DNA of 64,000 nt from a virus (taxonomy: Duplodnaviria > Caudoviricetes): positions 1-64,000 of the IMG/VR virus record IMGVR_UViG_3300021254_001514, one strand, 5' to 3'. Position numbers and translations under genes: made by a program. The notes beneath the pieces are model-generated. The model did no database searches, was not told the origin of the DNA, and saw only the letters and a list, made by a program, of their open reading frames with translations. The number at the start of each line of letters is the position of its first letter. The first letter of the stretch is position 1. Of the stretch, positions 57,823-64,000 are shown in pieces.

Positions 57823-58131
57823 ATGATTAATATTAGAACACTTAGAAAAATTTCTGATAATGGCGGTCTCACTCTTAAGAATGGCAAACCGATTTCCTAT
57901 AAAAGCGGATGGCAAGTAGCAACCGAAGGAATCGAAACTACAGATATTCTTGAAGCGATGAAAGCAATTAAAGGATATAAGGGAAATTGCGGAATTTGGT
58001 TCTCTGATGGAATCTGGTACATAGATAAAAGTAAAAGAGTAGATACAAAGCGCGAAGCCATGGAGATTGGGCGCAAGTGCAATCAGATTTCTATTCTTAG
58101 ATGGCGCGATATGGGTTTGGCGTACTGCTAA
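57823..58131 (+). CDS. Hypothetical protein
   Basis: Own promoter, GAGAGG RBS, and a stop inside hairpin 58107-58141. Confidence 0.8.
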   Translation: MINIRTLRKISDNGGLTLKNGKPISYKSGWQVATEGIETTDILEAMKAIKGYKGNCGIWFSDGIWYIDKSKRVDTKREAMEIGRKCNQISILRWRDMGLAYC

Positions 58132-58255
58132 ACCCATATCGAATATTCGTTTTTTTTGCCCGGGCGCCACGTAGTTAGACGAGACTAACTAAAATTAAAT
58201 AAAAATTTTTTTAAAAGGGGTTGACAAACCATAAACTCCGTGCTATAATGTATAC

Positions 58256-58465
58256 ATAAGGTGAGAGATGGCAGAACGAGAGAAGGTCACAAGTCGACCG
58301 TATAAGACCATTTGACGAAAGTCCCCACCACCGCAAGCCGAAGTCCAACTTTGCGGTATATAAATGTGAGGCAACAGCGCACGCTCTTGGAAGTGCGAGG
58401 GTGGTTGGATTGAGAGAAAATGAGTTCGAGAGGTTTATCCCTCTCGGACTCGGCGCCCGGGCGCC
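58256..58465 (+). ncRNA. Structured ncRNA candidate with a pseudoknot
   Basis: Consensus promoter at 58221; no long + strand ORF (a 15-codon ORF at 58268); several stems, a GAAA tetraloop and an 8-bp loop-tail pairing. Confidence 0.6.
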
Positions 58466-58578
58466 GTTTTGTTATTTTGCACAAAAATAAAATCAATTTT
58501 TGTATATTTTTTTTCTTGACTTTTTATATATTAAGTGATATAATATATACATAAGATAAAGAAAAGGAGAAAAACAAA

Positions 58579-58683
58579 ATGGCAATCATTAAACTTGACG
58601 GTTATGTAATCGGTACGGAAAGAATTGAAGAAATCAACATAAGAGAACTTGAAGAAAATGGTTTCGTTGTTGTTATAAAGTAA
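58579..58683 (+). CDS. 34-aa hypothetical protein (MAIIKLDGYVIGTE...)
   Basis: Own promoter and AAGGAG RBS. Confidence 0.7.
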   Translation: MAIIKLDGYVIGTERIEEINIRELEENGFVVVIK

Positions 58684-63139: not shown

Positions 63140-63781
63140 ATGAAAGTTATCGTTCTTGACACGGAGACTACTAACTCTATTGATGACCCCATCTGTTATG
63201 ATATTGGGTGGGCAGTAGTTGATCCTGAAACTGGAGAAATTTTTAAGACAAGAAGCTTTGCGGTAGCTGAGATTTTTCTTGATAAAGAGCTGATGAGCTA
63301 TGCGTATTTTGCTGATAAAATCCCCTCTTATTGGGATGAGATTAAACGTGGAGAACGGAAACTTGCTCGCCTCTATAATATTAGAAAGGCTTTACAAGCT
63401 GATTGCAAGAAATATTTCATTTCTGAAATTTATGCACACAACGCTCGATTTGATTATCGTTCGTGCAATCTCACGCAAAGATTTTTGACTTCTTCTAAAT
63501 ATCGTTATTTTTTCCCTTACGGAATAACGATTTGCGATACGCTAAAAATGGCAAGGGAAGCCTTCAAGAATTGCCCAGAATACTGCGATTTTTGTGAGAG
63601 AAATAACTATAAAACTGAGAAAGGACAAAACCGTTATACCGCTGAAATTCTTTATAGGTTTTTTACAGGTGATAATGATTTTATGGAAGAGCATAAAGGT
63701 CTTGATGATGTTAGAATTGAAAAAGAAATTTTAAAAGAATGCTTGCGAAGAGGTATTACAAAAAGTGCGCTTTGGTCTTGA
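63140..63781 (+). CDS. DEDDh 3'-5' exonuclease
   Basis: VLDTETT, YAHNARFD, CDTL, EEHKGLDD. Confidence 0.9.
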   Translation: MKVIVLDTETTNSIDDPICYDIGWAVVDPETGEIFKTRSFAVAEIFLDKELMSYAYFADKIPSYWDEIKRGERKLARLYNIRKALQADCKKYFISEIYAHNARFDYRSCNLTQRFLTSSKYRYFFPYGITICDTLKMAREAFKNCPEYCDFCERNNYKTEKGQNRYTAEILYRFFTGDNDFMEEHKGLDDVRIEKEILKECLRRGITKSALWS

Positions 63782-64000
63782 CCAAGGCGCCCGGGCGCGG
63801 TTAGAGACATCTAACTAAAATTAAAGAAAAATTTGAAATTTATGCTTGACTTTTCTGAAAATATCGTGTATAATCTTATTAAAGAGTTAAGGAAAGCGCG
63901 CAACTCCCAAAAAAAATTGAAAAATTTTTTAAAAAGTCCTTGACAAACCAAATAAAGTATGCTATAATAAGTATATAAAAAAGAAAGAGAGGTAACTACT

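Follow-up and report, generated by a model that had tools for sequence, protein, structure and literature searches.

A cassette of a ruminant-gut phage very probably encodes a member of an uncatalogued family of pseudoknotted RNAs

An 82.9-kb phage record of IMG/VR (IMGVR_UViG_3300021254_001514, of which positions 1 to 64,000 are hereafter the window) carries a small cassette at 58256-58465, for which a first-pass annotation had proposed a pseudoknotted non-coding RNA of about 200 nucleotides (nt). Comparison with related loci makes it very probable that this cassette encodes a structured RNA that is real and independent and whose family is uncatalogued. The RNA is indeed non-coding and pseudoknotted, but its conserved body is shorter than had been thought: covariance models and type-A alignments place it on the + strand from 58256 to about 58420, a length of approximately 165 nt. 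On sequence comparison, the family most probably belongs to large virulent-type phages of ruminant-gut Clostridia. It comprises three sub-types that differ mainly in their 3' domain, the window representing type A. In the predicted fold, a kinked arm at the 5' end is followed by a core hairpin, whose loop engages in two pseudoknots, and by an H-type pseudoknot at the 3' end; in all, three interactions cross.

A blastn search of 50,697 phage records with the cassette and an exact-match search of IMG/VR for the core 25-mer were both without a match. Eighty related loci were gathered via the 102-aa gene just upstream of the cassette; distant copies of the cassette were detected in seven of these with nhmmer, while the RNA was found in nine of the 80 by covariance-model search. 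The copies detected with nhmmer have in common the core ...ACCGCA-loop-UGCGGUAUAYAARUGUGA..., and scanning for this motif identified 41 contigs in IMG/VR, 13 among GTDB species genomes and, in metagenomes, at least 119. A second, independent pattern, composed of the loop of hairpin P4 and the junction UAAG described below, brought in members with a different core. Altogether, 138 distinct full-length relatives were collected from IMG/VR phage, metagenome and Clostridia metagenome-assembled genome (MAG) contigs. Covariance-model matches of the body in the window reached 86.5 bits (E 4e-15) for R1 and 34.6 bits for R2.

All 13 GTDB contigs come from MAGs, most of them labelled Clostridia, Acutalibacteraceae or Eubacteriales, and several carrier MAGs originate from yak, sheep (colon in the titles) or other ruminant gut. 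Among the samples examined, DNA of the window phage or its close relatives was present in bovine, sheep and other animal gut runs. Five near-complete phage records (133-402 kb) contain the RNA, with one copy per 133-177 kb genome and two in the 402-kb record. Carriage among host-family genomes is sporadic: of 151 sampled from the family to which one carrier MAG belongs, two contain the RNA. Furthermore, a relative from bovine gut matches the window until 58164 and again from 58456, with different DNA in between. This swap, taken together with the carriage in nine of 80 loci and the sporadic distribution among hosts, implies that the element is phage-borne and optional, and that it is exchanged as a cassette at GC-rich junctions.

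Support for the fold comes from alignments of the separate sub-types. Across the seven type-A sequences, including the window, 91.1% of cells are paired, compared with 39-49% when slid, and the covariation score is 0.241 (at most 0.095 when slid); for 13 type-B sequences the corresponding values are 87.4% against 33-47%, and 0.335 against at most 0.093. Neither alignment was equalled by any of 500 shuffles (0/500 in each case). Pairs were counted within each sub-type because, in a single covariance-model alignment of all types, the 3' domains of types A and C were placed wrongly. G-U occurs at several of the conserved pairs and would read as A-C on the opposite strand; hence the structure resides on the + strand, the one read by the promoter. 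Folding the cassette as a single sequence gave a z-score of -2.7 relative to shuffles, and -2.3 for the opposite strand. These values are mild enough that single-sequence folding decides nothing, and the case rests on the comparative evidence, which is strong. The first-pass annotation had put forward homologue collection and covariation as its own check; among the 138 relatives, the pseudoknot covaries very extensively.

At the centre of the fold lies the core hairpin H (58330-58357, + strand), in which ACCGCAA (58330-36) pairs with TTGCGGT (58351-57) around a 14-nt loop (58337-58350). This stem had been recognised at the outset. It is invariant in the pattern-found members, and covaries in those found independently through the other motif, where AGCGCA/UGCGCU and CCGCG/CGCGG occur; its seventh pair may be A-U, C-G, U-A or U-G. 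Both loop pseudoknots start from this hairpin. In the first, PKa, loop nucleotides GCC (58337-58339, + strand) pair with GGC at 58370-58372, and a two-state switch is seen across the 138 sequences: GCC loops always accompany GGC(A), and GGU or UGG loops accompany ACC or CCA. In the second, PKb, AGTCCAAC (58342-58349, + strand) pairs with GTTGGATT (58404-58411), forming a helix of 7-9 base pairs (bp) in the family. PKb is 100% paired in type A and 99% paired in type B, with double changes at six of the eight pairs in type B. The script listed 55 PKb helix sequences among the 138 copies, a few of them mis-picks, leaving around 50 that are real and complementary; the 8-bp pairing between loop and 3' strand originally read from one sequence is thereby borne out. 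A different type of phage, represented by L117 (2140-2510, - strand) and also by L083, L087 and L095, carries about 370 nt of non-coding sequence behind an open reading frame (ORF) of 65 aa. This stretch holds GUAAG-ACCGCA-CCAUCA-UGCGGU-AUACAAAUG-UGAUGG, which is the core of the family in the form of a minimal H-type pseudoknot, with otherwise unrelated structured sequence around it.

Covariation does not distinguish pairing in cis from pairing in trans, and PKb could in principle be intermolecular, the RNA assembling into homo-oligomeric rings or cages in the manner of phi29 pRNA, ROOL and GOLLD, and acting as an RNA-only scaffold. ROOL and GOLLD are phage or prophage RNAs found near tRNA islands, and a covarying kissing loop in GOLLD proved to be an intermolecular bridge (PMC12286853). 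The present family likewise occurs in ruminant-gut phage DNA and sometimes abuts tRNAs. With ROOL, which was first found in the rumen, and GOLLD it shares the character of an orphan, intricately pseudoknotted phage or prophage RNA often near tRNA genes, and these two are its closest analogues in kind. Such an assembly is nonetheless improbable: ROOL and GOLLD (580-800 nt and above) are three to five times as long as this RNA of about 165 nt, no Rfam match to ROOL, GOLLD or pRNA was obtained, and the intramolecular fold is sterically plausible. The resemblance to phi29 pRNA (RF00044) extends to a phage-encoded, promoter-driven RNA of comparable size (about 120-174 nt for pRNA) in which a covarying loop-loop 'pseudoknot' is the key interaction. 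By contrast, the architecture is different, and the carriers are phages of 80-180 kb with a conventional large terminase rather than 20-kb phi29-like podoviruses. A packaging role of the pRNA type is unlikely because the phage has an ordinary large terminase, which in the window phage shares 36-40% identity with its counterparts in Geobacillus virus E3 and in large phages of Enterococcus and Bacillus.

The 5' arm is built on two helices, P1 and P2. P1 pairs GGTGAGAG (58260-58267, + strand) with CCCCACC at 58323-58329; this helix is 89.8% paired and mostly invariant in type A, and it covaries in the other sub-types (GAGAUG/CAUCUC, GAGUUG/CAACUC). P2, formed by ATGG (58268-58271, + strand) and CCAT (58308-58311), is supported by covariation, with GGAAG/CUUCC, ACAGG/CCUGU and AUGG/CCAU among the variants in type A; types B and C have GCGAGG/CCUCGC, GCGGGG/CCCCGC and others. 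The multi-way junction first envisaged must be redrawn accordingly. Its pseudoknot is retained, but the topology is that of kinked arm, core hairpin and H-type pseudoknot, with no closure by CACC/GGTG (58326-29/58400-03). Both of those sequences are present, yet GGCT stands at this closing pairing in the six other type-A members, and the CACC at 58326-29 pairs instead with the 5' GGTG at 58260-63. P2 is capped by a junction containing a variable hairpin P3, degenerate in the window, the hairpin P4 and an invariant UAAG. P4 (GGTC-ACAAGTC-GACC, 58285-58299, + strand) is 100% paired in type A, its middle pair swapping between AU, UA and GC, and takes the form GAC-CCACGAGA-GUC in types B and C. 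UAAG (58303-58306, + strand), part of GUAAGA in most members, corresponds to invariant columns T50, A51, A52 and G53 in 23-24 sequences and is present in 132 of the 138 relatives.

At the kink of the arm, between P2 and P1, lies an asymmetric linker, conserved and of the GAYAAAG type, which reads TTGACGAAAGT in the window (58312-58322, + strand). A GA bulge and a 1-by-7/8 loop, with A opposite GAYAAAG, are found in 74 of the 138 copies, including the window. Among the remaining 64 are a kink-turn (K-turn) form, CCC-NAU-GA-YCC, and a GCCAAAG variant. In the K-turn form the arm strands GGY-GA-GGG... and ...CCC-NAU-GA-YCC make up a canonical K-turn, with a three-base bulge and tandem G-A pairs; this consensus is confined to part of the family and is seen in members of types B and C, for example L104, L090, L114, L082, L101 and L019. 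The GAC-GAAA-GTC tetraloop hairpin that was initially placed at 58314-23 falls within the conserved unpaired linker. Its sequence is there in the window, but the hairpin is not conserved, and cannot form in those relatives in which AACAAAGAC or GACAAAGAC stands at this point.

The 5' end also contains the only ORF of the cassette, 15 codons at 58268-58315 behind AAGGTGA, whose ATG is the AUGG strand of P2. That the peptide MAEREKVTSRPYKTI is the product, and the structure incidental, is scarcely credible. The AAGGTGA is a good Shine-Dalgarno-like sequence 5 nt before the ATG; the ATG, however, is part of helix P2 (AUGG/CCAU), and the purine-rich 5' end is the conserved strand of P1. An early ATG, within the first 35 nt, occurs in 28 of 116 promoter-bearing copies and is absent from the other 88, and where it exists the peptides are unrelated, vary in length from 3 to 60 aa and lie in different frames. 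Conservation of the small ORF, which the first-pass annotation had named as a possible refutation, is thus not seen among the relatives. Antisense ORFs over the RNA were also discounted, as their frame and length vary and they reflect only conservation of the DNA.

Between hairpin H and the 3' strand of PKa runs a second, near-invariant linker, ATATAAATGTGA (58358-58369, + strand), for which the alignments give the family consensus AUAYAARUGUGA. Its variants differ at one or two positions only, or have a hairpin inserted after AUACA. The latter arrangement is seen in GC-rich members, L019 (200-460, - strand) and L145 (319-437 and 1762-1877, - strand), where an extra hairpin gives AUACA-[hairpin]-AAAUGUYRA, marking a site at which the linker tolerates insertion. 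The 3' domain that follows is an H-type pseudoknot enclosing the partner strand of PKb. Its first helix, S1 (58378-58397, + strand), is the CGCAC/GTGCG stem (58378-82/58393-97) noticed initially, and covaries, with GGGG/CCCC, GCAC/GUGC, CCUCG/CGAGG and CCACG/CGUGG in other members. The S1 loop carries the 5' strand of S2, CTCT(T) at 58384-58388, and the 3' strand (G)AGAG (58412-58416, + strand) closes the pseudoknot. S2 is 91% paired in type A with double changes at three of five pairs, and appears as GGCU/AGCC, GAGGU/ACCUC or UUGCU/AGCAA in type B. A further 3' hairpin had been included in the original model; it does lie at 58422-58451, but is no part of the conserved RNA and serves as a terminator specific to the window.

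The genomic setting of the RNA points to a unit of its own. In the window it is preceded by a consensus sigma-70/sigma-A promoter (58221-58249, + strand), with TTGACA at 58221-26 and TATAAT at 58244-49, matching at 12 of 12 positions and with a 17-nt spacer containing TG. The perfect promoter and the promoter-to-terminator cassette of the first-pass annotation are both confirmed, as are the coordinates of every sequence element that it listed. A consensus-like promoter accompanies 123 of the 138 copies, the end of the -10 box usually lying 77-90 nt (range 75-161) before the core hairpin, a distance that implies a fixed 5' end. The 3' side is far less regular. In the 129 copies with sufficient flank, another promoter follows within 200 nt in 50, and a ribosome-binding site (RBS) with ATG in 22; a tRNA gene lies downstream in 11 of the 138, mostly about 0-30 nt after S2 and in one case about 180 nt, and other copies, the window included, are followed by terminators. 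Frequent neighbours include an NT5C/HAD-like protein, an exonuclease-like protein and small unknown proteins, which are syntenic members of an early module. This pattern fits a discrete RNA that probably acts in trans and sometimes matures with tRNAs, and is unfit for a regulator of a single gene. In L086 (5017-5090, - strand) and L037 (4555-4630), a tRNA-like piece of about 66 nt separates the promoter from the RNA; it has the T-arm GCGGA-UUCGAGU-UCCGC and paired ends, shows no clear anticodon arm, and is called by neither ARAGORN nor Rfam.

This setting bears directly on whether the RNA could be a cis-acting leader, that is, a riboswitch or protein-binding attenuator for a downstream gene such as that for the exonuclease-like protein. 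The RNA is directly 5' of an exonuclease-like ORF in L099 and L115, an RBS and ORF come after it in L086, L088 and L122, a U-run follows the last helix in some type-A copies, and the K-turn resembles that of SAM-I P2. However, the downstream partners vary between the next promoter (50 of 129), a tRNA (11 of 138) and unrelated ORFs, two terminator hairpins follow the RNA in the window, where the next gene has its own promoter, and no riboswitch family was matched; a leader function is consequently quite improbable. An obligatory partnership with the exonuclease-like gene was also considered and set aside, since RNA and gene, though direct neighbours in some loci, are separated by 4.7 kb in the window. 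Their adjacency is not specific, because both belong to one syntenic early module. In L089 (3990-4055) the leader of the exonuclease-like gene opens with AAGGUUAGGGAAGCGAAGGCAAGCCC, much as the RNA itself begins, before the likeness ends; possibly this is the relic of a duplication that took in the promoter and the RNA start. The position at the extreme 5' end of the transcript and the tight pseudoknotted fold could alternatively describe a stabiliser, an exonuclease-resistant knot shielding early transcripts from 5'-3' decay of the RNase J type. This is very improbable, as the window and many relatives have nothing downstream in the same transcript to protect, and 165 nt with invariant unpaired residues exceed what a roadblock needs.

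No known RNA family accounts for the sequence. At gathering thresholds, Rfam 15 (4227 models) gave no match anywhere in the window, and at E-values up to 10 only chance matches of at most 21.9 bits, far below the cut-offs, were obtained for 58100-58600. On 13 homologous loci, the same models found only neighbouring tRNAs, so the initial failure to assign a family stands. ARAGORN found no tRNA or tmRNA in the window, and in the relatives only genuine adjacent tRNAs. Six variants of a conserved 17-mer were absent from the literature text searched, though the IMG/VR structured-RNA catalogue, which contains some 8,500 unnamed candidate structures, may list a fragment as an unnamed 'DNAVirus_N' (PMC10690425).

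Several individual resemblances were nevertheless followed. The strands of the K-turn sub-type, GGY-GA-GGG... and ...CCC-NAU-GA-(A)ACC/YCC, are nearly identical to the helix P2 K-turn of the SAM-I riboswitch (RF00162), and in both RNAs a kinked helix bears an element with the potential to dock on a core that contains a pseudoknot. The likeness ends there: SAM-I gave no match even at permissive E-values, the covarying helices do not form P1/P3/P4, and the family has neither the four-way junction P1-P4 nor the SAM-binding core. Its kinked helix is capped by a junction with two hairpins instead of a loop, the unit is stand-alone instead of a leader, and the window's sub-type has a GA bulge and GAYAAAG loop where the K-turn would stand. 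More generally, a riboswitch is disfavoured by the heterogeneous downstream context (promoter, terminator, tRNA or unrelated ORFs), which forms no coherent gene set. Bacterial RNase P RNA was likewise dismissed, as the P4 pseudoknot between GGAAAGUCC (CR-I) and a 3' strand (CR-V) is not formed and no model matched. The related GAUAAAGUCC occurs in part of the family only, and the partner of its UCC(C) is the 5' GGGA of P1, not a 3' strand. The possibility that the RNA mimics the 23S GTPase centre or sarcin-ricin loop (ACGAGAG, GUAAGA) was considered, found no sequence support and was dropped. T4 species 1 and 2 RNAs and the T5 small RNAs are discrete stable RNAs, co-transcribed and processed with phage tRNAs, whereas the present RNA mostly has its own promoter outside tRNA clusters.

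Small ribozymes typically have compact folds with multiple pseudoknots, in which a few unpaired nucleotides are invariant. The RNA might hence be a self-cleaving or otherwise catalytic RNA of a new class, able to trim itself from early transcripts or from transcripts joining it to a tRNA. Many copies lack a terminator and run into the next unit, and in 11 of the 138 a tRNA gene comes after, mostly within about 0-30 nt. Theta ribozymes are small double-nested pseudoknots of about 50-70 nt, like that of hepatitis delta virus (HDV), and share with this family the description of pseudoknotted gut-phage RNAs beside tRNA genes. They provide a precedent, being HDV-like ribozymes linked to tRNA genes in gut phages (PMC10879173). 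Set against this, no Rfam 15 ribozyme matched even at E-values up to 10, the 5' end is conserved from the start of transcription, and RNase P could produce the 3' ends adjacent to tRNAs. The topology, moreover, is unlike the helix order of HDV-like and theta ribozymes, as the core hairpin is followed by unpaired AUAYAARUGUGA with no complementary 5' strand, and no HDV-family model matched. Catalysis of this kind is therefore given a low probability, similar to that of the oligomeric scaffold.

The explanation preferred here, at slightly less than even confidence, is that a stand-alone structured RNA of about 165 nt, representing a new phage family, acts early and in trans as a binder. The helices, free to drift in sequence, would form a scaffold holding the invariant unpaired nucleotides of the linker and UAAG in a compact pocket or surface, and UAAG together with AUAYAARUGUGA is the predicted binding or active site. 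The RNA would be produced abundantly as soon as infection begins and would act on a specific partner, either a host protein or sensor, for which it would be a decoy or sponge, or a small molecule, and would not regulate the neighbouring gene. The binder or decoy mechanism, taken separately, is a more tentative proposal than the explanation as a whole. A bolder suggestion, that UAAG and AUAYAARUGUGA form the site of a new functional class of RNA, either a ribozyme or a free-standing early aptamer serving as an anti-defence sponge, is possible but must be considered unlikely.

A number of observations weigh against the trans-acting binder. No phage-encoded K-turn protein of the L7Ae type was found in five carrier records; the window's own sub-type, furthermore, is without the canonical K-turn. 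A complex fold with invariant unpaired residues would suit a ribozyme or a riboswitch aptamer equally well, and covariation, being blind to whether pairing is intramolecular or intermolecular, is as compatible with an assembly as with a monomer. The invariance of the linker and the core hairpin is in part an artefact of the search motif, for which the second pattern gave partial relief. Transcription itself is deduced from the logic of promoter and terminator and from the strand-specific G-U pairs. No RNA run is among the sequencing runs recorded as containing the stretch, and two metatranscriptome runs from the probable source sample of the contig yielded next to none of it as contigs, results with no bearing on expression.

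Folds of like complexity have earlier proved to be riboswitches, ribozymes or ribonucleoprotein cores, and an elaborateness of this order, which packs three crossing helices, an arm with a K-turn and a dozen unpaired but invariant bases into about 165 nt, is rare. Its abundance in ruminant-gut phages, strong early promoter, optional and swappable carriage and absence from Rfam make the family a concrete, small and synthesisable target for new RNA function, far more amenable to experiment than ROOL or GOLLD and relevant to conflict between phage and host. A decoy or sponge, if that is what it is, would add an RNA arm to phage counter-defence, and a ribozyme would constitute a new catalytic class.

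In the window the RNA forms part of a distinct region. From about 54.5 kb onward the + strand is an early-gene module of short ORFs and GC-rich hairpins based on a repeated GCCCGGGCGCC, which occurs 11 times in the window, where 0.05 copies would be expected. Perfect 12/12 promoters (TTGACA-N17/18-TATAAT) scored over 50-64 kb number 18; 17 of them lie between 54600 and 64000, 14 on the + strand, and this segment looks like a host-takeover style early module made up of many one-gene cassettes. The GC content of the RNA cassette, 0.445-0.48, exceeds that of both flanks, as noted at first inspection; the excess is clearest relative to the downstream side (about 0.25-0.33), the gene just upstream having 0.39-0.415. 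The upstream junction of the cassette is a GCCCGGGCGCC repeat at 58158-58168, assigned to no strand and identified by its motif count and by the relative's break-off at 58164. At the 3' end, the terminator scan located a window-specific region (58422-58479, + strand) consisting of the hairpin at 58422-58451, a GC palindrome at 58452-58465 that is also the downstream cassette junction, and a T-run, 58452-58479 reading GGCGCC-CG-GGCGCC followed by the T-run. This 3' hairpin and terminator are not conserved, the relatives finishing in other terminators, the next promoter, a gene or a tRNA. Palindromic GCCCGGGCGC(C) motifs mark the cassette boundaries of the early module at 11 sites between 55655 and 63799 (for example 58158-58168, 58452-58465 and 63786-63799), and two of them bound the RNA cassette exactly, with other DNA in its place in the bovine-gut relative, which suggests that they are recombination joints as well as terminator stems. 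Close to the last of these sites, a 213-aa protein (63140-63781, + strand) has no Pfam match but displays, by eye, a DTETT motif as in DEDDh exonucleases, and is 62% identical to the protein encoded directly 3' of the RNA in L099.

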